Assembly: GCA_016867235.1 (NCBI GenBank)
Contig: VGJY01000003.1
Span: forward strand, 406-64,405
Source of the DNA: Candidatus Tanganyikabacteria bacterium
GTDB taxonomy: Bacteria; Cyanobacteriota; Sericytochromatia; S15B-MN24; VGJW01
DNA length: 64,000 nt
Reading direction: 5' to 3'
Part shown: positions 2,414 to 23,281 of the stretch, piece after piece
Position numbering within the stretch: position 1 is the stretch's first letter
Layout of the letters: each line of letters opens with the position of its first letter
Notes under the pieces: generated by a model
The model's input: the letters and a program-made list of their open reading frames with translations, nothing else
Database searches by the model: none
What the model was told of the DNA's origin: nothing
Translations under genes and position numbers: made by a program

Positions 2414-2556
2414 GATGCCCCCCGTCGCCCGTGCAGAGCGCGGCTAACTACCCAAGCTGCATATACCCGATGTGATCAAAATGTGATCGAATCGACGATT
2501 CTGGGCCAGAGTCAGCGGAGGTGATTTGGCACTCAAACCCGCTTGCCTACTCACAG

Positions 2557-2637
2557 TGCCTGAGAGGAGACTCGAACTCCTACGGGTCGCCCCGCCAGAT
2601 CCTAAGTCTGGTGCGTCTGCCATTCCGCCACTCAGGC
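2557..2637 (-). tRNA. tRNA-Leu (anticodon UAG)
   Basis: Reverse complement GCCTGAG...CTCAGGCA folds as a cloverleaf. 7-bp acceptor stem, anticodon stem CCAGA/TCTGG with loop CUUAGGA (anticodon UAG, G37), long variable arm typical of Leu, T-arm GGAGTTCGAGTCTCC. Confidence 0.8.
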
Positions 2638-3814: not shown

Positions 3815-6800
3815 TTACGCCGGGCCGGGCGCGGAGCGGAGACCCCCTTCAAAGGCGCCCAGTTGCTCGAACAGCGCCTGTGCGGCCTGGGCGTGGTGGC
3901 TCCGCTCGGGCTCGGGGACCCGGGCGCACGCCCCGAGTTCCCGCTGGGCCAGGGCGCGATCGTAGGGCATCTGCAGCCGGTCTGCCGCCTCGAGGCTCCG
4001 GCGCCAGGCTCGCACCGCCGCGGCCACGCGGCCTGCCCGGGCGAGGCGCCGGCCGTCGCACAGCAGGTACCGGGGCATGGCCACCGGAAACACGCCCGCC
4101 AGCTTCCCCAGGGCGCGCGAGGCCCCGGCCGCACCCTTGCGGTCGCCGGTCTCGATGTAGAAATCCGCCACGGCGGCGTAGGCATCCAGCACCGACGGGT
4201 TGACGGGTGGGGTCCTGGCCATCAGGGCGAGGGCCGCCGCCGCGGACGTCCCCGCCGCCGCGAGATCGCCCGCCCGCCACGCGGCGAGCGTGGTGAGACC
4301 CAGGTTGATCATCTGCTCGCCGTGGTCCTTGCTGCCGTCGAGGTGCCCGGCCGCGCTGGCCAGCAGGTCCGCCACTCCGTCGTCGCGGCCTTGCCGCAGC
4401 AGGCTCCATGCCAGGAGGTTGGCGTTGGCGGCCTGGTACTGCACGTCGCCCGCTCGCCGCGCCAGTTCCCCGAGTTCGCGGGCATCCGCCTCGCAGCGGG
4501 CGAAGTCGCCGGTGAAGTACGGGACCAGGTTGGCCATGTTGCGCGTCATGGTCCACTGCCGGCGATCGCCCAGCCGCTCGAAAATGCCGTAAGCGGCGGA
4601 AAGCTCGGAGCGGGCGCGTTCCCAGTCGCCTATGCCGGCATGGTAGTAACCCAGGGGATAGCGGGCGTTGGCCTGCGTCCTGGGGTCGGCGACCTGGTCC
4701 AGCACGCCCTTGGCGAGGTCGGCGTAGAGCCGCGCCATGCCGTGCAGCGGGATGATGCCGGAGATGGCCGCGGCCGCCGCATACGCCCGGGCGAGCTCCG
4801 GGCTCGGGCCGACCGCTTCCGAGAGCTCGAGCGCCCAGAGGCTGGCCAGGAACCCTTCGGCCACCTTGTTTTCCAGGAAGTAGATCTCGACCAGCGCCTC
4901 GTAGATCGCGATGCGATCGCACAGGGCTCCCCGCTCCTCCTCCGCGACGTCGCCGCGTGCCGGCCGGCCGACGATGCGCCGCCAGGCCTGGCCGGCTACC
5001 CGCGCCAGCAGCGGGGCCACGGCGGCAAGGGTTCCGGCGGGCATCGGGTGGCCAAGCAGCGCGAGCGCTTGCTCGAAGTGCCCGCGCGCGTCTCCCAGGC
5101 GCCCCAGGCCGAGGTACGCCTTTCCCAGCCCGCGCTCGCGGCGCCACCTGCGCCCCCGGCCGGCAGCATCCCCCGCGCCGGCATCCAGCGCGCCGGCCCG
5201 CCCGAACGCATCGGCCGCCTCGAGATAGCCACCGTCGAGCAGGGCGGCCTCCGCGGCCCGGTCGAGATGCCCGACGGCCAGCGCCACGTCGCCGGCCTGC
5301 TCGCGATGGTACGCCAGCAAGCCATGGAGCGCCGCCGGGTCGCCGGCGTCGCGCTCGAGGCATTCGGCGGCGGCGCGGTGCAGCGGCTGCCGCTGGGACA
5401 CGAGCATCGTCCCGTAGACGACCTCGCGGGTGACGGCATGGCGAAAGGCGTAGAGGCGCTCCGCGGGCTGGACCAGCAGCTGCGTCGGCTCGACCGAAGC
5501 CAGGACCGACGCCAGGCGCCCGCGTTCCGGCACGATCGGGTAGATGGCCTGGGCAAGGTCGAAGCGGAACTGGCGCCCGATGATGCTGCCGGTCTTGAGC
5601 GCAAGCTGCTGGGACGGCTCGAGCCTGTCCACGCGCGCCCGCACGATACCCTCGATCGAGGTGGGCAGCTCCAGGCTGCCCAGCACCCGCTCGTCTCCGG
5701 CCAGCCGGCACTCTTCATCGGCTACCACGATCACCCCGGCATCTCGCAATGCCAGCGCCAGCTCTTCGGAAAACAGCGGGTGCCCCTCGCCGCGTTCGCG
5801 GACGATCTCAACCGCCGCCGGCGGCAGGGCCCGCACGCCCAGCCGCTGGCATGCGACCGCGAGCGCATCGTCGGGGGTCAGCGGCTCGAGGATCACGCGG
5901 CTCGCCCGCTCGGATGCCAGCAGCCTGGCGAGTTCCCTGGGAACGGTCGGCTGCGGGCGCTGGCTGACGACGACCAGGCACGGGAGGAACTCTTCGTGGA
6001 CTCGCGCGAGCAGCGCCAGGGAAAGAGAGTCGAGCCAGTGGGCATCCTCGATCACCAGCACCAGAGGCTCGTGGATCGCCCGGTCGGTAAGGAGCGCCAG
6101 CAGGGCGCGCTGCGTGTTGTCGGCCCTCACCTGCTCGGTCATGGCCGCGGTGGCGTCGTTGTCGGGAATGCGGGCGCCGACGATGTGCCCGAGGAGCGGC
6201 GCGAGGTGCTCGAGTTCGGGATGGCGGGCCAGACGCTCCCGTACCCGACCCTCCCGCGACTCGCCGTCGGCCTCGGGCGAAAGGCGCAGCAACTCGGCGA
6301 AAATGGGCCGCCAGGCGTGGTAGGGCCGCGCCCAGGCGCGCGCGTCGCCGGCACCCTGCCAAACCGCCAGGCCACGCACCCGCGCCAGCCGATAGACTTC
6401 CTGGACCAGGCGGCTCTTGCCGATCCCGGGTTCGCCCTCCACGACCACCACCGTGCTCTCGCCGGTCCAGAGGCCATCGAGTCCGCGTTCGAGCAGGCGG
6501 ACCTCGGCCGTCCGGCCCACGAGGGGCGTGGCGGTGACCCCGGCGGCGGTCCCCGCACCGACGGGAGTGAACACCGTCAGGAGGCCGGTCTTGCCCTTTG
6601 CCTTGATCGCCGCCCTTTCGGCGAAGGTCACGCGCCCCCGAGCCTCGCGGTAGTTGTTGACGTCGCACAGGATCGCGCCCGGCGCCGCCTGCATCAGGCG
6701 GGCCGCGAGATTGACCGTGTCGCCGAGCATCGTGTACTCGCGGCGCGTGTCGTTGCCGACCTCGCCGCAGAACACGCGGCCGGATGCGACGCCTATGGCG

Positions 6801-7846
6801 GTCCGGATTTCCAGGACGCCCAGTTCGGCCTGGATCTCGAGCGAAGCGAGGGTCGCGCGGACCGCATCGTCCTCGTGAGTCAGTCCGGGGAGCCCCCAGG
6901 CCGCCAGGAGCGAGACGCCCTTGTCGTCCACGCTCAGCTTGTTGATGCTGCCCTCGAACCGCGACACGACCTCCTGGAGGGCGCGCACGGCTTCGTTGAT
7001 CTGCTCCAGCGGCAAGTGCCAGAGGCCGGGCAGGTTGACGAAGACCACCGACACCCGGCGCAACTCCGCGAGCCAGGCCTGCTGCCCCGCGAACACCCGG
7101 GTGCAGACCGACTCGGGCACGAACGCGGAAACGCCCCCGGGAGCGGCGGAAGGCTCGGCTCCGCGCAGCAGGCCGGTGGGGGCGGGCGCCACGCGCACGG
7201 CGCTCAAGCGCACGGCTCCTCCGGCCCGTTCCTCGCCCTCGGCGTTGGCACCCATCAGGCGCCAGGCGGCGTCGGTCGCAACGACCTCGCCCGGTGCGGC
7301 CACCTTCCCGGCGCGGCCCAGGTCGGCCAGCACGGCGCCCGTCACGAGGACCTCCCAGCGGTCGCCAACCCCGCCGACCTCGGACACCGCCACGTCTCCC
7401 ACGCCGATCGCGACCCGCAGGCCCAGCCGTACCTCTCCTCCCGGGTCGAAGGCATCCATGCGCCGCTGCAGCGCCAGGCCGCATGCCGCGCTCCGGAGCA
7501 CCAGGCCCTCGAGATCGCCGTCTCCCGGGCTCCCGGGCCAGACAGCCAGGAGGGCGTCCCCGGCGAACTTCAGGATGTCGCCGCCGGCCGCGGCAATGGC
7601 GTCGATCAATTCGCCGAAGTAGCCGTTGAGGATGCGCGTGAGTTCCTCGACGCCGCCCTCGCCCGGCGACATGAGCCGCTCGGACAGCGCGGTGAAGCCC
7701 GAGACGTCGGCAAAGAGCACGGCCGCCGGAAACACTCCGGTGCGAGGGGCGACAGGCGGCCCGCCTCTCTCGATCCGCCCCAGCACCAGCCGCGGTACGT
7801 AGGTAGCCAGGGCCGACAAGGCCGTCGTCGTCACGGGGTTTGCCAC
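3815..7846 (-). CDS. Large regulator with two tandem class III adenylate/guanylate cyclase homology domains (CHD) followed by an AAA/NB-ARC-like ATPase domain and C-terminal TPR repeats
   Basis: 1343 aa, GTG start. First CHD has FADVSGFT and KFAGDALLAVW. Second CHD has VVFVNLPGL ... EYTMLGDTVNLAARL. Walker A VVVEGEPGIGKSRL. TPR-like helical repeats at the C-terminus. Confidence 0.85.
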   Translation of the reverse strand: MANPVTTTALSALATYVPRLVLGRIERGGPPVAPRTGVFPAAVLFADVSGFTALSERLMSPGEGGVEELTRILNGYFGELIDAIAAAGGDILKFAGDALLAVWPGSPGDGDLEGLVLRSAACGLALQRRMDAFDPGGEVRLGLRVAIGVGDVAVSEVGGVGDRWEVLVTGAVLADLGRAGKVAAPGEVVATDAAWRLMGANAEGEERAGGAVRLSAVRVAPAPTGLLRGAEPSAAPGGVSAFVPESVCTRVFAGQQAWLAELRRVSVVFVNLPGLWHLPLEQINEAVRALQEVVSRFEGSINKLSVDDKGVSLLAAWGLPGLTHEDDAVRATLASLEIQAELGVLEIRTAIGVASGRVFCGEVGNDTRREYTMLGDTVNLAARLMQAAPGAILCDVNNYREARGRVTFAERAAIKAKGKTGLLTVFTPVGAGTAAGVTATPLVGRTAEVRLLERGLDGLWTGESTVVVVEGEPGIGKSRLVQEVYRLARVRGLAVWQGAGDARAWARPYHAWRPIFAELLRLSPEADGESREGRVRERLARHPELEHLAPLLGHIVGARIPDNDATAAMTEQVRADNTQRALLALLTDRAIHEPLVLVIEDAHWLDSLSLALLARVHEEFLPCLVVVSQRPQPTVPRELARLLASERASRVILEPLTPDDALAVACQRLGVRALPPAAVEIVRERGEGHPLFSEELALALRDAGVIVVADEECRLAGDERVLGSLELPTSIEGIVRARVDRLEPSQQLALKTGSIIGRQFRFDLAQAIYPIVPERGRLASVLASVEPTQLLVQPAERLYAFRHAVTREVVYGTMLVSQRQPLHRAAAECLERDAGDPAALHGLLAYHREQAGDVALAVGHLDRAAEAALLDGGYLEAADAFGRAGALDAGAGDAAGRGRRWRRERGLGKAYLGLGRLGDARGHFEQALALLGHPMPAGTLAAVAPLLARVAGQAWRRIVGRPARGDVAEEERGALCDRIAIYEALVEIYFLENKVAEGFLASLWALELSEAVGPSPELARAYAAAAAISGIIPLHGMARLYADLAKGVLDQVADPRTQANARYPLGYYHAGIGDWERARSELSAAYGIFERLGDRRQWTMTRNMANLVPYFTGDFARCEADARELGELARRAGDVQYQAANANLLAWSLLRQGRDDGVADLLASAAGHLDGSKDHGEQMINLGLTTLAAWRAGDLAAAGTSAAAALALMARTPPVNPSVLDAYAAVADFYIETGDRKGAAGASRALGKLAGVFPVAMPRYLLCDGRRLARAGRVAAAVRAWRRSLEAADRLQMPYDRALAQRELGACARVPEPERSHHAQAAQALFEQLGAFEGGLRSAPGPA

Positions 7847-7852
7847 TGACTC

Positions 7853-8155
7853 ATGCTACGGGAATCTGGGTACGACCATGATATGCCGAGCTTCCAAGTG
7901 CCGCCCCCCGGGGCCAATACGGGTTCGCTGCGCAACACGGGCAGCGCGAAAGGCTCCTCGGGATCGTCCGTCAAGGAATCCCAGCAGGCCAAGGCCGAAG
8001 CCAAGGCCGAGGCGATGGAGAACGCCAACTTCAGTTCGGCCGCCGATGCGCTCAAGCAGACGGCCGGAGCGCCGATGGAGAAGCCCCCGCCCACCGACCC
8101 TAACGGGCCAAATACACCGATCGTCGATAAGCGACCGAACGGCATCATCCCCTAG
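7853..8155 (+). CDS. Small low-complexity (K/A/E/S/P-rich) protein whose stop overlaps the start of the downstream synthase gene
   Basis: 100 aa ORF; alternative ATG at 7883. Stop TAG 8153-8155 overlaps GTG 8155-8157 of the next gene (TAGTG). No homology recognised; the start is uncertain. Confidence 0.4.
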   Translation: MLRESGYDHDMPSFQVPPPGANTGSLRNTGSAKGSSGSSVKESQQAKAEAKAEAMENANFSSAADALKQTAGAPMEKPPPTDPNGPNTPIVDKRPNGIIP

Positions 8156-10113
8156 TGGTGCCGGCTCCCCCGCGCGACCTCGCCGCTCTCGAGGCCGCGA
8201 TCGCCGGGGTCCTGGAAGCCGCGCGGGTCGCGCCGGGCTTCCGGTCGGCGCTGGCGGGCCACCTCGGACGTTACGCCGCTTTCAGCCTCGAACGACCGGA
8301 CTGGTACCCGGCCGGCATCCCGGGAGCGATCTGCTCCTCGTTCGGCTGCCCTCCCGAGAAGGGCGCCATGGTCGCGGCGGGCTGCATTGCCTACCATCTG
8401 GCCCTCGACGCCATGGACGACGTCCAGGATGGCGACCTGGCCCTGTGGCCCGACCAGTCGGGACCCGAGGTCCTGAATGCCGGCATCGCCTTGCACGTGG
8501 TGGCCCAGGAGGCCTTTCGCCTCGCCGGCTGCGGGCCCGCGTTCTTCGAACGGTATCACGCCCTAGCTCTCGAGACCGCGGCCGGCCAGTCGCTGGATCT
8601 CGCCTGGCGGCCCGGGCGGCTGGCCGAGACGCGGGAGGTCGACTACTTCCGTATCGTCTCGCTCAAGACCGGCGCGACCTTCGAGATCATTGCGCGGGCC
8701 GCCTGCGGCACGGCCGGCGCCGATCCGGCGGCGACCGAGGCCCTGGCCGCCTGGTCCCGCGAACTCGGTACCTACATGCAGGCACTCGGGGACAACGATG
8801 ACGCCGCGACCGAACCGAGCCCGGATCTGGCAAAGGGCAAGCCCAGCCTCCCCCTGATCTTCGCCTACGCGGACCTCGCGCCGGCAGAGCGGATCGCCCT
8901 GGCGAGCGCGCTCGCCGCCTATGCGGATCGGGACGCGGCGCGAGAGACGGTCCACCGGCAGTTGCGCGAGACCGATGCCATGGGCCGCGCTCGCGCCCGG
9001 GTGGCCGACATGGGCCGCCTGCTGGCCGCACGCCTGGACGACCTGGTCCCGGCCGAACACCGGGCCGCCTTCCGGCGGCTGATCTACCGGCTCGAAGACG
9101 GTATGCCCCCTCTGCCCGAGAAGAAGCCGGCCAAACCCGCCGAGCCCGACTGGTCGGAACTCGCGCCCCGCGGCGACCAGGCCGCCGCCGCCCTGCTCGC
9201 CGCGCCGACGTGCCCCGAGAGCTGGGACATCCACCGCTGGGGATTCTGCGGGCACCCCGAACTGGTGGGCGACGTATTCCCGGTCGCCCTGGTGGCGGCT
9301 GCCCTGCAGGCGTGCGGCCGCGACGCTTCCGCGGCCAGGATTCACCTCCTCGCGCGGGCAAACGCCGACGGCTGGCGCTACTTTCCCGAGATGCCCGAAC
9401 TTCCGCCCGACGCGGACGTACTCGGCCAGGTGCTCCAGGTGCTGGCGCCGGGCTCCGACCTGCCGGCGGTCGCGGCCGCGGCCTCGGCCCTGGTGGCGCA
9501 CATCGCTCCGTCCGGGGCGATCCCGACCTGGCTGGAGGGCGCCCCCGACCCCGCGGATTCACAGTGGGGGGGAAACGACTGCGTCGCGGCGATCGCCAAC
9601 GCCTATTACGGCCTGCTGCGCTTCGATGCGGCCCGGTACGCCGAGATCGTCCACGCCGGCCTGCCGCACCTGCTCGCCCACCTCGACCGGCATGGCGACT
9701 GGGAAAGCTTCTGGTACATCCCGGCCTATGCTCGCTACGCCGCGGCGCGCCTGCTGGCCGCCGCCGGGCGCGGGGACCTGCCGCCTTTCCTCGCGGCCGC
9801 CGTCTCGAGCGCCCTCGCCCGCACCCGCGACCGGGTCAAGGCCGAGACCCGCCCGGACGGCGCCTGGAACGGGCCCCAGGACACCGCGCTGGCCCTCCTG
9901 ACCCTGGCGGCCGCGGGCGACGAGGCGACCGATTTTCGCCCCGGGCTGCGCCTGCTGTGCGACTCGCAGCGCGGAGACGGCTACTGGCCGGCCTGGCCGC
10001 TGTACCTCATCCCTGCGCGGGACGGCGGCTACACCTGGTACGGCAGCAAGAGCGCGACGACCGCGTTCTGCCTCCGGGCCATCAGCCTTAACCTCGGCTT
10101 TACCTGGGCATAG
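8155..10113 (+). CDS. Fusion protein: N-terminal trans-isoprenyl (polyprenyl) diphosphate synthase domain plus C-terminal QW-motif alpha-alpha toroid (prenyltransferase / squalene-cyclase-like repeat) domain
   Basis: 652 aa. Asp-rich motifs LDAMDDVQDGD (FARM-like DDxxD) and GDNDD (SARM-like) in the N-terminal half. C-terminal half carries QxxxGxW-type motifs (QRGDGYW, RDGGYTW, HGDWESFW) but no class II DxDD motif. Confidence 0.8.
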   Translation: MVPAPPRDLAALEAAIAGVLEAARVAPGFRSALAGHLGRYAAFSLERPDWYPAGIPGAICSSFGCPPEKGAMVAAGCIAYHLALDAMDDVQDGDLALWPDQSGPEVLNAGIALHVVAQEAFRLAGCGPAFFERYHALALETAAGQSLDLAWRPGRLAETREVDYFRIVSLKTGATFEIIARAACGTAGADPAATEALAAWSRELGTYMQALGDNDDAATEPSPDLAKGKPSLPLIFAYADLAPAERIALASALAAYADRDAARETVHRQLRETDAMGRARARVADMGRLLAARLDDLVPAEHRAAFRRLIYRLEDGMPPLPEKKPAKPAEPDWSELAPRGDQAAAALLAAPTCPESWDIHRWGFCGHPELVGDVFPVALVAAALQACGRDASAARIHLLARANADGWRYFPEMPELPPDADVLGQVLQVLAPGSDLPAVAAAASALVAHIAPSGAIPTWLEGAPDPADSQWGGNDCVAAIANAYYGLLRFDAARYAEIVHAGLPHLLAHLDRHGDWESFWYIPAYARYAAARLLAAAGRGDLPPFLAAAVSSALARTRDRVKAETRPDGAWNGPQDTALALLTLAAAGDEATDFRPGLRLLCDSQRGDGYWPAWPLYLIPARDGGYTWYGSKSATTAFCLRAISLNLGFTWA

Positions 10114-10146
10114 CAAGGGCTTTCCTTCCTTAACCGATAGCCTCGT

Positions 10147-10728
10147 ATGCGAAAGATGCGTGGCGGGATCGGGTTCTTGGCCCTGGCGGCCGCCCTGCTG
10201 GCCGGTTGCGGGGCGGGGACGCCCTCGCTGGCGCAGGCGCCGGTCCGGTCCTACGGGGCGCTCGAAACCCGGGCCCCGAAGATCGACCGGTTCGCGAAGG
10301 TCAACGACGGCCTGTACCGCGGCGGGATGCCCGCCGACGGCCAGTTCCGCGAACTGCGCAAGCTGGGCATCCGCACCGACGTCTCGCTCCTGGGAGCCGG
10401 CCCGGCCAGCCAGCGGCAGGTGGTGGCCGCGGAACGCGAGGCCGCCGAGGCGGCCGGCCTGCGGTTCGTCAACGTCGTCGTGCCTTACGGGGAGCCGAGC
10501 CGGGCGCTCATCGACAAGTTCCTGCAGGTCGTGCAGGATCCTTCCAATCAGCCCGTCTACGTCCACTGCAAGCACGGCCGCGACCGCACCGGCACGATGA
10601 TCGCCCTGTACCGCATCGCGGTGGACGGCTACACGGGCCGGCAGGCCCTGGCCGAGATGGAGACCTTCGGCTTCGACCGCGACGAATATCCCTACTACGC
10701 CAAGACCGTGCTGAACTTCGGCCTCTAG
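10147..10728 (+). CDS. Lipoprotein protein-tyrosine/dual-specificity phosphatase
   Basis: Signal peptide with lipobox LLAGC. Catalytic P-loop HCKHGRDRTG (CX5R). Confidence 0.8.
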   Translation: MRKMRGGIGFLALAAALLAGCGAGTPSLAQAPVRSYGALETRAPKIDRFAKVNDGLYRGGMPADGQFRELRKLGIRTDVSLLGAGPASQRQVVAAEREAAEAAGLRFVNVVVPYGEPSRALIDKFLQVVQDPSNQPVYVHCKHGRDRTGTMIALYRIAVDGYTGRQALAEMETFGFDRDEYPYYAKTVLNFGL

Positions 10729-10764
10729 GAGCGCTCGGGTATAAGGTCCCCACAGGGGGGCGCC

Positions 10765-11355
10765 ATGACCACCGTCGACAACAAGAGCTTCGTCACCGGC
10801 CTGTACCGGGAAATCCTGGGCCGCAATCCCGAGAAGAGCGGGCTGGAGCACCATCTCAAGCTCCTCGACGGCGGCATGTCGCGCGAGGAGATGCGTGCCG
10901 CCATCATGGCGAGCAAGGAAAAGCAGCTCAAGGACGCCCGCGAGGCCGACAATGCCCCGCAGGCCAAGCCGCGCAAGGATCGGGCGCCCCGGCGCCGCGG
11001 CGACGGCTCCGACCTGCCTCTCCCGAAGGAGCCCGCCGGGCCCGGCAAGCCGGGAGTGGTGCGCGACGGCCCGGGCGGCTTCCTCTGGAAACCGGTCAGC
11101 GACAGCGACGGGAAACTGGCGGTGCTGCTGCCCGAGAAGCTCACCAACAACGCCAGGGCCGCCTACCTCGAGGGCCCGGACGGCACCAAGCTCGAAGACG
11201 GGCGCTACGCCGGCAACGGCAACGGCGGCCGCGAGCACTTCCGGTTCCGGAAGCAGGGCGGGGCGTACCCGCCGGGCACGACCGTGGTCGTGGTCACCCA
11301 GGACGGCACGACCGTGCGCTTCACGGTGAAGGACACGGGCGCGAGAAACGATTAG
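10765..11355 (+). CDS. DUF4214 domain protein
   Basis: N-terminus FVTGLYREILGRNPEKSGLEHHLKLLDGGMSREEMRAAIMASKE matches the DUF4214 pattern (F...LY..LGR.P...G...W...L..G.SR). Confidence 0.6.
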   Translation: MTTVDNKSFVTGLYREILGRNPEKSGLEHHLKLLDGGMSREEMRAAIMASKEKQLKDAREADNAPQAKPRKDRAPRRRGDGSDLPLPKEPAGPGKPGVVRDGPGGFLWKPVSDSDGKLAVLLPEKLTNNARAAYLEGPDGTKLEDGRYAGNGNGGREHFRFRKQGGAYPPGTTVVVVTQDGTTVRFTVKDTGARND

Positions 11356-11370
11356 CCGCCCGGCCCGAGC

Positions 11371-13065
11371 CTACAGCCTGAGCTCGGCCCGCAACGCGCT
11401 CAGTTTCGAGCCGAGTTCCTCGTCGGTCATGGCCTTGAAGCGCTCGGGCAGGAGCCGCCGGCTCGAACACTCGAAGACCGCCAGGAGCTCCATGAAGTCG
11501 ATCATCTTGCGGTTGCGATTCGGGACGAAGTCGGCGATGGCGTCGAGCAGATCCTCTTCGGTCATCTTGCGCGACCGCTCGGCGGCGAACTCGTCGGCCA
11601 GCAGCAGCAGGGCCTCTATCTCGGCGGCCGAGTAGCCGTCCGTGCGGGCGCACGCCTGCTCCCACGGGAAGGGCTCGCGGTCGATCCGATGCTTGCGGAC
11701 CTGCGCCTCGAAGATCAGTTGCCGCTCGGCCGCGGACTGCGGGAAGAAGAACGGGATCTTGCGATCGAACCGCCCGGGCCGCTTGAGGTCGATGTCCAGC
11801 TTGTCGGGCCGGTTGGACATCACCAGCCAGAGGATCTTGCCGCGGTGGCTGGTATCGCTCATGAACGCCTTGATCCGGGCGAAGACCCGCGACGAGACGC
11901 CCGAATCGCCATCCTCGCCGCCGAGCGCCCGGTCCACCTCGTCGATGATGATCATGACCGAGCCCAGGGCCCGCACGATGTTGAGAATCTTCTCGAGGTT
12001 GCCCTCGGTCGAGCCCACCCACTTGTCGCGGAAGTTCTTGAGCGCGAGGCAGGTCAGCCCCGAGTCGCGGGCGAACGCCTCGGCCACGTAGGTCTTGCCG
12101 GTGCCCATCGGGCCGACGAAGAAGATCCCCATCGGCACGTGGCGCCTGACGCCGTTCTTGATCGCCTCGGCCACGCGGGCGAGCTGGCCCTTGACGACCT
12201 CCATGCCCCCGACGACGTCGAGGCCGTGGTCGGGGTCGATCATTTCGACCAGGCCGAAGCACTCGTTCTCGATGATCTCCTTGCGCTTGGCCGCCAGCAT
12301 CGAGATGCTGACCGCCTCTCCCGACTTGGCCGACTGCCGGAGCACCCCCTCCAGCTGGATCAGGCGCAAGCCCGAGGAGAGGCGCGCGATGGCCTCCTCG
12401 GGAGCCTCCAGGCGCGCCGCCAGTTGCTGGGCGGTCTTGCGCAGGAAGGCCAGGCGCTCGTTCTCCCCCGGGAGAGAAAGGTCGATCGGCTGGATCTGCG
12501 GGCTGCGCACGATGGCCTTGTTGATTTCCGCGACGTTCTCCCCGATCAGGATGATGATGTTGTCCGAGGCCAACAGGTGCGGCTCGTTGGCCCAGCGCTC
12601 CAGCGTGATGAGACTGGTCCTGTCGTCGCCGCCGAGCATGGCCGGGTCGTTGGCCGGCACCAGGGCCTCGACGAAGTCGATCACCACCGCCACCCGCTGG
12701 CCGGGGATCGACAGGAACGCCTCGAGCAGCGGCAGGGCGCGCCGCGCGTCGCGGGGAAGTTCGGCCGGGACGGGGGGCAGGCCCAGGATGTTGTGCCGCA
12801 CGTTCAGCGCCGTGAGGAACTTCTCCTTCATCTGCGGCACCGCGAAAGTCAGGCCCTCGGAGATGTCGTAGTACACGACGACATCCTTGGTCTGCTTGAG
12901 GAGCGCCTCGTACAGGAACTTGTCCAGCCGGAGATACTCGCCGCGCCAGGCCACCAGATCGCGCACGTTGTTGTGCAGCAGGAACTGGATGGTCGTGCCG
13001 CTGAGGTAATGGTGGCGCAGTTTTTCGGCCCAGGCGGGCAGCGCGGCGGCGACTTCCAAGGTCAT
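11371..13065 (-). CDS. Classical-clade AAA ATPase (Vps4/FtsH/CDC48-type AAA module) with unknown ~300-aa N-terminal domain
   Basis: 564 aa. Walker A GPMGTGKT, Walker B IIIDEVD, second region of homology [21 protein letters not shown]. 9 bp downstream of the preceding membrane-protein gene. Confidence 0.85.
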
Positions 13066-13074
13066 CAGGCTCTC

Positions 13075-13905
13075 CTAGCGTTCGGCGGCCAGCATCTGGT
13101 CCGAGATGAGGGCGTTGGTCTCCTGCAGCACGGCCTCGGTCATCTCGACGCCCGAGACGATCTGGCCCAGATCGATGCCGAGCGCGCCCGGCGCCCGGAG
13201 CGAGACCATCTGGTCGTTGACGAGCTGGAATGTGTCCTCGATGACCTCGAGTTGCGCCTGCAGGTTGAGGTAGTCCCGCTGGATGGCCTCGATGCGCTCC
13301 AGCCGCTTCTCGAGGATGTCCAGGTTCTGGCGGGTGATGCGCTGCGTGTCGGTGTCGAGGTTGCGCTCCAGCCGGCCGCGCAAGTGGGCCACTTCCTTGA
13401 CGATGGCGTTCTCGTCGGTCTTGTTGAGATAGCGGCGATACCGCAGCCAGGTGACGAGGAGCCGCAGGAAGGCGTCGAGCAACGCATCCAGCTTGTCGAG
13501 TTCCTCGGCGAGCAGATCGTTGGCCACCGCTCCCGAGTCGCGGGCGCCCTGCCGGATGTCGTCGTACAGGCGGCGGACCTCCTGGTAGCGCGTCCCGAGT
13601 TCGGGCGTCAGCGCCGTGACCATGCGCTTGCGGTCGCGCTCTTTCTCGGCCTGCTGCCGCCGCGAGCGGCCGCGCAGCAGGCGTCGCTGGTAGCCGGGCA
13701 CGAAGGGCGCCCACAGCAGGTAGACCCCTTCGCAGGCGGCCACCGCGGCCAAGACCGCGCCATAGTGGTGCGGCACGGCGATGGCGGGGGCGAGCGCGAG
13801 CGGCAGGGCCGCGCAAGTGAGCACGGCAAGGTTGGCCCGCTCGAGGAAAGCGGCCTTGACTCCTTCCCAGTAGGTGGGACGCCTTACCAGAGGCCCGCTG
13901 GCCAT
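13075..13905 (-). CDS. Membrane protein with two N-terminal TM helices and a long coiled-coil
   Basis: 276 aa. Hydrophobic segments LAVLTCAALPLALAPAIAV / VLAAVAACEGVYLLWAPFV, then heptad-rich region. Sits between pspA and the AAA gene. Confidence 0.6.
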   Translation of the reverse strand: MASGPLVRRPTYWEGVKAAFLERANLAVLTCAALPLALAPAIAVPHHYGAVLAAVAACEGVYLLWAPFVPGYQRRLLRGRSRRQQAEKERDRKRMVTALTPELGTRYQEVRRLYDDIRQGARDSGAVANDLLAEELDKLDALLDAFLRLLVTWLRYRRYLNKTDENAIVKEVAHLRGRLERNLDTDTQRITRQNLDILEKRLERIEAIQRDYLNLQAQLEVIEDTFQLVNDQMVSLRAPGALGIDLGQIVSGVEMTEAVLQETNALISDQMLAAER

Positions 13906-13962
13906 CTAAACCCCTCGGGGACGTCGATCTCGGCCGCCTGCGTCGTCAAGCCGCCATCCGGG

Positions 13963-14703
13963 TCACATGGTCTTTTCGGTGCGCGCTTGCTGTGCCCCCA
14001 GGCTTTTATCGGCCTCGGCGGCCGGCTGGGACAGGCCTAGCTGGATCTTGTACTGCTCGAGTTCGGCCGCGGCGGCGCTGGTCTTGGCCAGGTCCTTGAT
14101 CTTGCGCATCTTGGACTCGACCGACTCGCTGCCGACCTCGCGGGCCAGATCGGCCTGCGCCTCGGTCTTCATGATGCTCTCGCGCACCTGATCGAGCGCC
14201 TTGACGTCCGCCTCGACCGACATGCCCGAGAGTTGCTCCTGGATCGTCAGGCGCGCCTTGGCGCTGTGAGCCCGGGCGACCATGCGGTCGCGCTCCTGCT
14301 TGAGCTTCTCTATCTCGGTCTGGAAGTTGAGGAGGTCCTGCTTGTGCTTCTCGGCATCCTCGGCGGTCTTGGTGAGCTCGGCCTGGATACGCTCGACTTC
14401 CTCGGTCAGCAGGTTCTTCTTCTCGATCAACTGGAGCGCCAGTTGCTCCTCGCCCTGCTGCACCGCCACCGGGATCTGCGTCATGATCTCCTTGAGACTG
14501 CCGCTCTTCTCGGTGAGCTCCTTTTCGAGCTTGTTGCGGAGGTAGACGATGCCCGAGACGGCCTTCATCAGCTTCTGATACTGATCCTGCCGGCTCTGGA
14601 TGGCGGATTCGTAGACGGCCTCCGGGTTGTCTTTCTCGAGGCCGCCGATGAAAAGGCCGAGAATACCCTTGAACAAGTTGGCCAACCTGGTCAGGAAGCC
14701 CAT
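13963..14703 (-). CDS. pspA: PspA/IM30/Vipp1 family protein (bacterial ESCRT-III-like)
   Basis: Protein from the internal ATG: MGFLTRLANLFKGILGLFIGGLEKDNPEAVYESAIQ..., the typical PspA N-terminal amphipathic helix and coiled-coil. GGGAGG RBS about 11 nt upstream of ATG 14703. About 246 aa including a C-terminal extension. Confidence 0.85.
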   Translation of the reverse strand: MGFLTRLANLFKGILGLFIGGLEKDNPEAVYESAIQSRQDQYQKLMKAVSGIVYLRNKLEKELTEKSGSLKEIMTQIPVAVQQGEEQLALQLIEKKNLLTEEVERIQAELTKTAEDAEKHKQDLLNFQTEIEKLKQERDRMVARAHSAKARLTIQEQLSGMSVEADVKALDQVRESIMKTEAQADLAREVGSESVESKMRKIKDLAKTSAAAAELEQYKIQLGLSQPAAEADKSLGAQQARTEKTM

Positions 14704-14804
14704 CTGTACGCTTACCTCCCTCCGGCGCCCCGGGCGCGGTCGGACCAATTATCTCACGCGCGTCTGTTAGGATCGGTATTCCCTGCCACACAGAGGAGCA
14801 ACGC

Positions 14805-20527: not shown

Positions 20528-23281
20528 CTACTTGGCCGGCGCGGACCCCGGCCCGACCACCACCGTCAGCAGCTTTTCGGGCGCGAGGTACCGTCTGGCC
20601 AGACCCTGGAGCCGCTCGGCGGTCGCCGCGCGGATGAGGTCGTTCTGACGGTCGTAGTACTCGTAGCCCAGGCCGTACGCCTCGTACGCACCCAGGTTGT
20701 TCGCCAGCGCCACCGCTCGCTGATCGGCGATGGCCTGGCCGCCGATCAGGCGATCCTTGATGTGGCCGAGTTCATCGGCCGGCACGCCCTTCTCCCGGAT
20801 GTCGCGCCACTTGGCATGCAACTCGGCGATCGCCTCGTCGGTCTTCTCGGCGGCGACGCCGATGTAGAGGGAGAGGGCCCCCGCGCCCTGGAGGAGGCTC
20901 GCCATCCCGCCCGTGCTGTACGCCATCGGCTTGGTGTAGACCAGGTCGACGAAACAGCGGAAGCCCACGAGGCTCGACAGTACCCGCAGGTCCGTGTAGT
21001 CGGGATGGAGTCGGGTCACCGCAGGGGCCCCGACGATGATCTGGCTCTGCAGCTTGTCCATGGCTTTGCCCTGCCTGCCCAGGAGGGGCTGCGGCGGGGC
21101 CCCGGACAGTTCGGGGCCCGGCGCCCCGGAAGCCTGCCAGCTCGCGAACCGCGAGGCGGCCAAGATGCGCTCGAATTGCTGCTCGGTCAGGTCGCCCACC
21201 ACCGTCAGCACGCTGCGGCCCGGTTGCACCGCCGCCCGGTGGAACGCGACCAGGTCGGACCGCTCGATCGCGGAGACGCCCTCGGGCGTGCCCACGACGG
21301 GATGACGGTACGGCGACGCGGCGAAGATCGCGGCCGAGTAGGCGTCGCCGGCCTGGGCGTTGATGTCGTCGGCCCGGCGCTCCAGGCGGCTGACGGCGGA
21401 CGCCTTCTCCTTGGCGAACTCCGCCGGATCGATGATCGGAGCGGTCAGTAACTCGGAGAAGAGCGCGAGGCCGTCGCGGGCGTCCTCGGCGGCCAGCGTG
21501 AGCGAGCCGTACAGCAGGTCCCGATCCGCACCGATCGAGTAGTTGCCGCCCCACTCGTCGAAGCGCCTCGCGACCTCCTCCTGAGAGAGCTTGGCCGTGC
21601 CCTTCGGCAGCATGTCCGCCAGCAACTGCGCCGTTCCTTCGCGGCCCGGGGGATCGAAGGCCGAACCGGCCCGCGCGTGGAGCGCGATCCCCACCACGGG
21701 CCGACCAGGTCGCCGCTTGAAGAGCACCGTGAGGCCGTTGGGCAGCACGCGCTTGGCCACCGAAAACGCCGCCGCGGCGGGAGTCGGCGGCAGGAGCGCG
21801 TCGCCGGTCGGGACGTCGGCCTCGCCGGGGGCGAACGCCGCCTGGGAGAAATCCAGCCAGGCCGGCCTGTTCCCGCTTCCCGCCAGCGCGGCGACGGCCG
21901 CGGCGACGGCCGCCTCGTCGCCCGGCGCCGGCGCGTTGGTCTCCTCCGGGAGGGTCTGCACGGCCGTAAGGTTCTCCTTGACCAGGTACCGGGTCGCCAC
22001 GTCCGCCACCTCGGCGGCGCTCACCTGCTCGAAGCGGGCGAGCCAGTCGGTCTCGTAGCGGATGCCGCCGTACAGCGCCGATTCGCCGAGTTCCTGCGCC
22101 CGGCTCAAGGCCTCTTCGCCGGAGAAGAGCTGCAGCAGCCTCGCCTGGCGCTTGATGCGGGCGAGTTCGTCGGCCGAGATGCCTTCCTTGCGCAGCCTGG
22201 CCACCTCGCGCAGGATGGCCGCCTGGAGCTTGAAGGCATCTTCCGGGCGCTTCGGGTACGCCGAGAGGTACACCAGGCCCAGATCCTCGAGCGTGAAGGC
22301 GCTTGCCCCGACCTGCGAGGCCAGGGGTTCGCGTTCGACGACGGCCTGCCAGAGCCGGCTGGACGTGTTGCCCCCCAGCACCCTGGCCATCGCATCCAGT
22401 GGCCACCGGTCGGGATGCCGCCACCCGGGCACGACGAACGCCAGCGTGACCTCCGCCCGCTTGATCGGCTGGCGCTGCGTGAGTTCCTGGTAGCCGCGAA
22501 AGGCCGTCGGGAGCTTGGGGTGCTCGGGGAGCGCCGGGTTGCGCTTCCAGTGCTTGAAGGCCGCGCGCACCTTCTCCAGGGCCACAGCGGCTTCCACGTC
22601 GCCCGCGATGGCCAGCACCACGTTGTTGGGCGCGTACATCGCCTTGTAGAACTTCATGAAATCGTCGCGGCGCAAGCCGTTGAGGGTGGCGAAATTGCCG
22701 ATGACGGGCCGGGAGTAGGGATGCGGGCCGAACGCCAGGCGGAACGTCTCACGATAGGCCGCCGTACCTGGATTGTCGAGAAAGCGCCGCAATTCCTCGG
22801 TGACGACCTTCCTCTCCGCCTCGATGCCTTCGGGGGGCAACTGGGCGTTCTGCAGGATGTCCGCCAGCGAATCCAGCGCCAGGTCGAAATGCTCCTTGCC
22901 GACCACGTTGTAGTACTGGGTGCGGTCAAAGTAGGTGTTGGCCGAGTTCTGCCCACCCACGTGGAAGATGTCCAGCCGATCCTGGAGCGGCTTGCGCTTC
23001 TTCGTACCGCGGGCCGTCAGGTGCTCGAGGTAGTGCGAGTACCCCGAGAACCATTCGGGCTCGTCCTTCCCGCCCGCATGGACCCAGGCGTTGACGGCCA
23101 CGACCGGCGAGGCGTGATCCTCGACGATCACCACCCGGAGCCCGTTGGGCAGGGTGTGGTAGGACAGGGCCGGGGAGACGGCGACGGCGGCGGCAAACTT
23201 GGTGGTAGGCACGATCATCACAATCAACGAGAGGAAGACGAAGGCGGCAAGGCGGACATGGTCTGGCACTGGGCGGGACAT
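20528..23281 (-). CDS. Secreted M16 (pitrilysin/insulinase) family zinc peptidase, tandem M16 units
   Basis: 917 aa. Signal peptide. Inverted zinc-binding motif HYLEH (HxxEH) in the first unit; second inactive-type M16 unit. Confidence 0.85.
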   Translation of the reverse strand: MSRPVPDHVRLAAFVFLSLIVMIVPTTKFAAAVAVSPALSYHTLPNGLRVVIVEDHASPVVAVNAWVHAGGKDEPEWFSGYSHYLEHLTARGTKKRKPLQDRLDIFHVGGQNSANTYFDRTQYYNVVGKEHFDLALDSLADILQNAQLPPEGIEAERKVVTEELRRFLDNPGTAAYRETFRLAFGPHPYSRPVIGNFATLNGLRRDDFMKFYKAMYAPNNVVLAIAGDVEAAVALEKVRAAFKHWKRNPALPEHPKLPTAFRGYQELTQRQPIKRAEVTLAFVVPGWRHPDRWPLDAMARVLGGNTSSRLWQAVVEREPLASQVGASAFTLEDLGLVYLSAYPKRPEDAFKLQAAILREVARLRKEGISADELARIKRQARLLQLFSGEEALSRAQELGESALYGGIRYETDWLARFEQVSAAEVADVATRYLVKENLTAVQTLPEETNAPAPGDEAAVAAAVAALAGSGNRPAWLDFSQAAFAPGEADVPTGDALLPPTPAAAAFSVAKRVLPNGLTVLFKRRPGRPVVGIALHARAGSAFDPPGREGTAQLLADMLPKGTAKLSQEEVARRFDEWGGNYSIGADRDLLYGSLTLAAEDARDGLALFSELLTAPIIDPAEFAKEKASAVSRLERRADDINAQAGDAYSAAIFAASPYRHPVVGTPEGVSAIERSDLVAFHRAAVQPGRSVLTVVGDLTEQQFERILAASRFASWQASGAPGPELSGAPPQPLLGRQGKAMDKLQSQIIVGAPAVTRLHPDYTDLRVLSSLVGFRCFVDLVYTKPMAYSTGGMASLLQGAGALSLYIGVAAEKTDEAIAELHAKWRDIREKGVPADELGHIKDRLIGGQAIADQRAVALANNLGAYEAYGLGYEYYDRQNDLIRAATAERLQGLARRYLAPEKLLTVVVGPGSAPAK

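Follow-up and report, generated by a model that had tools for sequence, protein, structure and literature searches.

A probable ChrPC-type peptide maturase with a tryptophan-free candidate substrate in Candidatus Tanganyikabacteria

We analysed a 64,000-nucleotide stretch (the window) of contig VGJY01000003.1 (assembly GCA_016867235.1, positions 406 to 64,405 of the forward strand) from a Candidatus Tanganyikabacteria bacterium, with a G+C content of about 70%, in which one open reading frame (ORF) on the plus strand (8155-10113) joins a prenyltransferase-like domain to a terpene-cyclase-like domain. The 652-amino-acid product starts at a GTG (8155) that overlaps the stop of a small upstream ORF in the sequence TAGTG (8153..8157, plus strand), the last base of the TAG stop (8153-8155) serving as the G of the start codon, as an initial annotation of this DNA had described. 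The overlap is predicted to couple translation of the small ORF to that of the fusion enzyme. An identical or nearly identical protein is deposited as MBM3266141.1, from a Candidatus Tanganyikabacteria (Sericytochromatia) metagenome-assembled genome (MAG), under the name 'polyprenyl synthetase family protein', and public records label at least one close relative geranylgeranyl diphosphate (GGPP) synthase.

The small ORF, also on the plus strand, can be read either from an ATG at 7853, which gives the 100 amino acids of the initial annotation, or from an ATG at 7883, which gives 90 (7883..8155). The 90-residue product is disordered, rich in lysine, alanine, glutamate, serine and proline, devoid of tryptophan and cysteine, and ends in NGIIP. 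A 92-residue homologue occupies the same position in the related genome L001 (37% identity, E 6e-7), and the two proteins share the motifs MP[SN]F, A[NS]FS[SN]AAD and N[GN]IIP, the last directly before the stop. Furthermore, G+C at third codon positions is 0.82 in the frame of the small ORF versus 0.60 and 0.57 in the other two frames. This composition and the L001 homologue indicate that the small ORF is real, and because the homologue begins where Met11 lies, translation probably starts at ATG 7883; the coupled small protein therefore stands, probably at 90 rather than 100 residues. Hidden Markov models (HMMs) of four precursor families revealed no other precursor-like ORF in the window.

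Gene order at this locus is the same in L001: a divergently transcribed gene for a putative regulator, the small ORF, the fusion gene and a phosphatase-like gene are followed on the other strand by genes for an AAA ATPase, a 276-amino-acid protein and PspA, and then by HisRS. Between the window and L001, the flanking proteins are 73-93% identical, the fusion protein 61% and the small ORF product 37%. The small ORF and the enzyme thus diverge much faster than their flanks, a pattern typical of precursor-maturase pairs, and this joint divergence, together with coupled translation and conserved position, makes the small ORF look functionally linked to the enzyme, as had been proposed. In L001 (1716-1929), conservation of the fusion protein extends upstream of the annotated GTG, no in-frame ATG, GTG or TTG was found back to the previous stop, and the codon at the position of the window's GTG is CTG, overlapping the TGA of the small ORF (CTGA). 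This junction suggests either termination-reinitiation at a non-canonical start or a sequencing error.

An AlphaFold2 model of the fusion protein, built on 18 relatives, had a mean predicted local distance difference test score (pLDDT) of 87.6 with a disordered linker at residues 316-328, and the model, Foldseek and profile matches agreed with the two folds first proposed, a prenyl synthase and an alpha/alpha toroid. The Pro/Lys-rich linker comprises residues 316-330 (9100..9144, plus strand), with pLDDT below 50 for residues 316-328 and a length that varies in the alignment of relatives. The N-terminal domain (P domain; residues 1-315, 8155..9099, plus strand) was recognised by Pfam, 1WMW, Foldseek and motif comparison. 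Pfam polyprenyl_synt (PF00348) matched residues 98-256 with E 3e-15 and 56.5 bits (cut-off 27 bits), the match to 1WMW had E 1e-8, and the N-terminal half fell on octaprenyl and geranylgeranyl diphosphate synthases with template modelling (TM) scores of 0.73-0.80.

All four short motifs named in the initial annotation are present, two of them in the P domain. DDVQD (residues 88-92, comprising D88, D89 and D92; 8416..8430) aligns with the first Asp-rich motif, DDIxD, of canonical synthases, is unchanged in all 18 to 21 full-length relatives aligned, and is the predicted site for the Mg2+-diphosphate of a prenyl donor. GDNDD (residues 212-216; 8788..8802) does align with the true second Asp-rich motif, but it is degenerate rather than intact: D213 and D216 are conserved and the first Asp has become Gly. 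Four residues ahead of D213 lies Q209, and the family consensus reads Q-x-x-[STG]-D-x-x-D.

The pattern of retained and lost residues was established against four canonical synthases, three of them encoded beside relatives and one forming an extra C-terminal domain of the metagenomic protein P0112. The P domain keeps the first Asp-rich motif, GQxxD, KT (K171), D213, D216, D224 and K229. GKxxR is missing, with RPDWYPA in its place in the alignments with the four canonical synthases and with 1WMW; a six-residue deletion removes the (E)RRG that follows the first Asp-rich motif; and the GK after the second motif is absent. This pattern is common to 18 of 18 full-length relatives with an N-terminal domain of the trans-IDS type (IDS, isoprenyl diphosphate synthase), whereas the canonical synthases encoded beside relatives keep all four elements: GKxxR, RRG, the second motif's first Asp and the GK after it. 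The missing basic residues are those that bind isopentenyl diphosphate (IPP) in trans-prenyltransferases, and their loss leaves the earlier description of a chain-elongating enzyme without support. Judged from these alignments, the P domain derives from trans-IDS enzymes and is predicted to be no chain-elongating synthase; it probably retains the ability to bind and ionise an allylic diphosphate but not to add IPP.

The C-terminal domain (C domain; residues 331-652, 9145..10113 including the stop codon, plus strand) was identified as an alpha/alpha toroid by profile matches, by Foldseek and by Pfam matches in relatives. It aligns end to end with 8PAK, 8PAJ and the merosterolic acid synthase MstE (TM scores of 0.73-0.74 for 8PAK/8PAJ and 0.69-0.72 for MstE) and consists of one toroid with no gamma domain. 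Queried alone, the C-terminal half gave only sub-threshold cyclase matches in Pfam and NCBIfam, SQHop_cyclase_C at a weak E of 0.01. Among 75 relatives, SQHop_cyclase_C was matched by 22 (best E 1e-24) and Prenyltrans, weakly, by one. The family profile matched 8PAK (8e-25), 8PAJ, 6IJ1, MstE (1e-13), the drimenyl diphosphate synthase SsDMS and squalene-hopene cyclase (SHC), and the top 50 Foldseek matches held class II cyclases for the C-terminal half and no protein prenyltransferase beta subunit. A literature search on PDB entries 8PAK, 8PAJ and 6IJ1 or on myxobacterial cyclases retrieved nothing relevant.

A class II acid, held to be absent in the initial annotation, is found at the family position PPDxD[D/S/T/V]LG as D419-A-D421-V (9409..9420, plus strand), a DxD variant of DxDD that aligns with the DADS of 8PAK (PPDaDdLG in the family, PADADS in 8PAK). 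In an alignment of 150 family representatives, D419 and D421 are each kept in 147; at the third position, D (86 representatives) is followed by S (30), T (18), V (5), L (4) and C (3). We predict that D421 donates the proton, and MstE offers a precedent as a beta-only cyclase active with DxD in place of DxDD (PMC12414744). The aromatic residues Y409, W459, Y521 and Y525 are also conserved in the same alignment. The QW-type repeat QRGDGYW (residues 605-611; 9967..9987, plus strand) aligns with the last QW repeat of SHC and drimenol synthase, with Q605, D608, G609 and W611 conserved in 142-148 of the 150 representatives, and RDGGYTW follows at residues 622-628. By motif, profile and fold comparison, we assign the C domain to the single-domain (beta-only) class II terpene cyclases of the MstE clade, a family membership at odds with the earlier idea of an isoprenoid-binding barrel without catalysis.

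With either the protein or a 75-sequence profile as query, word-index searches for homologues brought up no more than the protein itself, a single 61% homologue and an unrelated match. A genome scan with patterns from the two closest proteins gave no match, and the 18-sequence alignment was too diverse for deriving search patterns. The homologue family was obtained instead by an exhaustive profile search with residues 330-652, which recovered 972 cluster representatives, 56 of them below E 1e-30. Since most of the 972 are 600-700 amino acids long with the domain at the C-terminus, the fusion is widespread.

Gene neighbourhoods were scanned at about 60 loci from species-representative genomes and metagenomes, and small ORFs of several families sit directly upstream of the fused gene. 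They include Os1348-family NHLP peptides (NF038399, 59-73 bits against a 40-bit cut-off), 80-amino-acid peptides ending in CWS, Cys-rich peptides with lanthipeptide-like leaders, and conserved 35-44-amino-acid peptides with an xLxxALLNxSLxExE segment and a short variable tail; the last adjoin the closest trans-IDS-type relatives, in Sericytochromatia and cyanobacteria. Four loci (L054, L057, L058 and L059) carry 99-108-amino-acid Flp-like ORFs about 90 bp upstream of the cyclase fusion, with a Flp-pilin-like N-terminus (…AATEYAVIL…) and a conserved CKLGGWE…NQGDC[VI]SF tail; perhaps they represent one more family of precursors for fused cyclases. Since relatives carry recognisable precursor genes directly upstream, the 90-amino-acid ORF of the window is the likely substrate of the fusion enzyme. 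Distant relatives often stand alone, with no other biosynthetic genes nearby.

A histidine kinase gene comes next downstream at several loci from Sericytochromatia and cyanobacteria. Four of these kinases, of 433-452 amino acids, have four to six predicted membrane helices followed directly by HisKA and HATPase domains (L003, 12117-13418; L007, 9877-11235; L009, 9906-11207; L010, 10095-11414). By analogy, the order small ORF, fusion, kinase at these four loci resembles comQXP, and the kinase recalls ComP. Halves encoded as adjacent genes had been suggested as something to look for, and L009 (7860-9802) appeared to offer a case; we rejected it as a genuine split of the P and C domains, since it shows two frameshifts in the linker on a MAG contig and is either a pseudogene or an assembly error.

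One subfamily clusters with YcaO, nitroreductase, methyltransferase and a separate canonical polyprenyl synthase, which implies that prenyl supply is a separate function there. A cluster of this kind, common to Acidobacteriota and a Calothrix (L011 4265-12957, also L014, L026 and L015), holds the CWS-ending 80-amino-acid peptides, a DUF6065 protein, an MTH865-like protein, the nitroreductase, methyltransferase and YcaO genes, the canonical polyprenyl synthase, and a 726-762-amino-acid fusion of an N-terminal DDLVD-motif domain to the cyclase domain; it looks like an azol(in)e-plus-terpene pathway for a ribosomally synthesised and post-translationally modified peptide (RiPP). P0112 (1081 amino acids) consists, from the N-terminus, of a helical DDLVD domain, a single-domain cyclase and a canonical polyprenyl synthase that is complete (DDIIDEAHERRG); in its subfamily, the supply of prenyl groups and the N-terminal domain serve separate functions.

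The fusion architecture, which the initial annotation had called unfamiliar, is already known, from an enzyme type first described in 2024. In the account given by a 2026 review, ChrPC is a RiPP maturase composed of a trans-IDS-like P domain and an MstE-like C domain (PMC13290415, citing the primary source, Hubrich et al. 2024, Chem 10:3224). With C10-C20 donors the enzyme prenylates a Trp of its precursor peptide, and its C domain then cyclises the prenyl group (PMC13290415). The fusion locus shares with ChrPC, as the latter is described there, the order and types of the domains and an adjoining small peptide gene, which here is a candidate precursor. It differs in that the ChrPC target is an internal Trp and the candidate peptide here is a Trp-free, low-complexity protein of 90 residues, and the DxDV acid motif is a further distinguishing feature.

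Other characterised enzymes share parts of this arrangement. MstE (PDB 6SBB) and the myxobacterial 8PAK and 8PAJ are likewise beta-only class II proteins of about 320-360 amino acids with a DxD-type acid, but they stand alone, whereas the domain here is fused to a prenyltransferase; moreover, the substrate of MstE is geranylgeranyl-dihydroxybenzoate, not a peptide. ComQ is a peptide prenyltransferase that keeps the first Asp-rich motif and has no true second (PMC10853753), the second-motif region being used for the acceptor instead (PMC10853753, PMC13290415). The genes for ComQ and PalQ adjoin those for a precursor and a histidine kinase, and the PalQ precursor is of the NHLP type (PMC10853753). 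The ComQ/ComX/ComP system of Bacillus and the PalQ/PalX/PalP system of Paenibacillus thus resemble the present family in their trans-IDS-derived enzyme with a first motif kept and a second degenerate, in the adjoining precursor and, for the closest cyanobacterial and Sericytochromatia relatives, in the membrane histidine kinase that follows; they differ in having no cyclase domain and in their Trp acceptor. Unlike comQXP, the window has no adjoining histidine kinase, and a nucleotidyl-cyclase/AAA/TPR protein and a lipoprotein phosphatase are found instead. PvCPS and enzymes of the fusicoccadiene synthase type also fuse a domain of the isoprenyl-diphosphate-synthase fold to a terpene cyclase, but they are complete elongating synthases, with a beta-gamma class II part and free terpenoid products. 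The drimenol synthase AsDMS (PDB 9MHS) pairs a single beta-domain class II cyclase with a second catalytic, diphosphate-handling domain, but its partner is a haloacid dehalogenase (HAD) phosphatase and its substrate is free farnesyl diphosphate (FPP).

We consider it reasonably probable that the 652-amino-acid protein acts on a peptide as a bifunctional maturase of the prenyltransferase-cyclase (PC) type. Most likely it is a divergent member of the ChrPC-type RiPP maturase family, marked by a DxDV acid motif and a candidate substrate that lacks Trp. In the mechanism that we infer, the P domain would ionise an allylic prenyl diphosphate, probably C15-C20 and drawn from the cell's pool, and, because its IPP pocket is gone, would hand the prenyl cation not to IPP but to another acceptor, most probably a residue of the translationally coupled 90-amino-acid peptide. 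The C domain would then protonate the terminal double bond of the attached chain through D419-x-D421, and the chain would fold to a polycyclic terpenoid. Such a maturase would yield a ribosomal peptide bearing a cyclised isoprenoid, with a possible role as a signal or membrane-active compound.

Several points weigh against a maturase of this type. Trp is the acceptor of every characterised trans-IDS-like peptide prenyltransferase according to the account in the review (PMC13290415), and neither the small ORF nor its L001 homologue encodes one; the small peptides beside the closest Sericytochromatia and cyanobacterial relatives likewise lack Trp. This absence sets the locus apart from the known family more than any other feature and is the chief uncertainty. 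Moreover, the small ORF product is long and of low complexity, has only one known homologue, and matches no known precursor family, including NHLP, proteusin, Nif11 and lanthipeptide precursors. No gene for a leader peptidase or an exporter adjoins the fusion locus, and the acid motif has Val instead of Asp at its third position. The likeness to ChrPC, finally, is drawn from the review's description of that enzyme.

A bolder form of the peptide maturase reading takes the lack of Trp at face value. It holds that the PC clade of Sericytochromatia and cyanobacteria lipidates Trp-free peptides through a new acceptor chemistry, which may involve a C-terminal or other non-indole residue, and that the product might be a ComX-like pheromone, sensed by the adjoining polytopic histidine kinase in relatives and perhaps by the cyclase/AAA/TPR protein here. 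We put this forward tentatively, as a possibility on the doubtful side.

A free terpenoid as the product of a tandem enzyme, class II first and class I second, is unlikely. The toroid would cyclise FPP or GGPP to a cyclic diphosphate, which the synthase-like domain would ionise or hydrolyse, much as in plant bifunctional diterpene synthases or in the cyclase-phosphatase drimenol synthase. A donor metal site kept alongside a lost IPP site would suit such an enzyme, as would the resemblance of the C-terminal cyclase segment to drimenol synthase and the distant relatives that often lack other biosynthetic genes. Against it, family members have conserved small ORFs directly upstream, bona fide NHLP precursors among them, MstE works on a prenyl chain attached to an acceptor rather than on a diphosphate, and ChrPC, the characterised enzyme of the same architecture, acts on a peptide in the review's description.

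We regard as distinctly unlikely a prenyltransferase-cyclase that acts on a non-peptide acceptor such as an aromatic small molecule, that is, a fused and soluble version of the merosterol (MstE)-like route in which the small ORF would be unrelated or regulatory. The MstE-like C domain fits this reading, and so does a small ORF that is free of Trp and matches no precursor family. The small ORF is nevertheless translationally coupled to the enzyme in a conserved arrangement in which both evolve fast together, the relatives carry peptide precursors, and no genes for making an aromatic acceptor were found in the neighbourhood of the fusion gene.

Quite improbable is a true elongating synthase coupled to an active class II cyclase, which would make GGPP or a longer product and cyclise it in the manner of the fungal copalyl diphosphate synthase PvCPS. 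Its appeal lies in a polyprenyl_synt match above the gathering threshold, in the intact first Asp-rich motif, K171 and K229, and in the GGPP synthase annotation of relatives; but no member of the clade has GKxxR, RRG, the second motif's first Asp or the GK after it, and the canonical neighbours have all of them. The model of the initial annotation, an elongating synthase joined to a non-catalytic isoprenoid-binding barrel for capturing or channelling its product, could draw on the lack of a strict DxDD and on the weak Pfam match of the C-terminal half alone, yet it is highly improbable given a DxD dyad kept at the DxDD position in nearly all representatives, strong profile and fold similarity to active single-domain cyclases, and an N-terminal domain without elongation residues.

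If the small ORF encodes the substrate, the targets of trans-IDS-like peptide prenyltransferases would extend beyond Trp, and ribosomal peptides with cyclised terpenes would also occur in the non-photosynthetic relatives of cyanobacteria. A widened acceptor range, if true, would be useful for lipopeptide biocatalysis, and the maturase reading, if true, might be evidence for peptide signalling in a lineage without cultured members. With about 1000 cluster representatives carrying the C domain, names such as 'polyprenyl synthetase' and GGPP synthase would mislead pathway reconstruction.

The divergent gene on the other side of the small ORF (3815..7846, minus strand) encodes a 1343-amino-acid signalling protein in which Pfam recognises Guanylate_cyc, AAA_16 and TPR, corresponding to class III nucleotidyl-cyclase domain(s), an AAA_16 ATPase and TPR repeats. 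Its start lies 6 bp from 7853, the spacing given in the initial annotation, and 36 bp from 7883. The gene is syntenic in L001, with 73% identity over 500 amino acids, and transmembrane segment prediction on the protein found none. An apparent second cyclase-homology segment (FADVSGFTALSE, near residue 45) precedes the Guanylate_cyc domain at residues 263-425. From its position, the gene may encode a regulator or sensor.

Downstream of the fusion gene, after 34 bp and in the same direction, 10147..10728 (plus strand) encodes a dual-specificity/Tyr-phosphatase-like protein. Its lipoprotein signal peptide (…ALLAGC) implies that it would be an exported phosphatase. The gene is probably in the same operon as the fusion gene, and it is kept in L001 (79% identity) and absent beside more distant family members. 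Gene position suggests the link to the fusion enzyme, and we are uncertain whether the phosphatase belongs to its system. A scan of 7400-11500 for promoters and terminators gave nothing above chance expectation.

A 917-amino-acid M16 (insulinase-type) peptidase is encoded at 20528-23281 (minus strand), about 10 kb from the fusion locus. Some RiPP leaders are processed by M16 peptidases, but the distance is too great for a link to be claimed. Toward the other end of the window, a tRNA-Leu(TAG) gene (2556-2637, minus strand) is followed directly downstream by a gene for a tyrosine recombinase (phage integrase; 1289-2413, minus strand). An integrase adjoining a tRNA gene is the usual signature of a tRNA-integrated island; we rejected a connection with the fusion locus, as the island runs toward coordinate 1, away from it. 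Finally, the segment at 11371-14748 (minus strand) encodes the AAA ATPase (564 amino acids), the 276-amino-acid protein, which has no Pfam match, and PspA/IM30. These genes may form a membrane-stress module whose closeness to the predicted lipopeptide locus may be coincidental, and they are 87-93% identical between the window and L001, far more conserved than the neighbouring enzyme.

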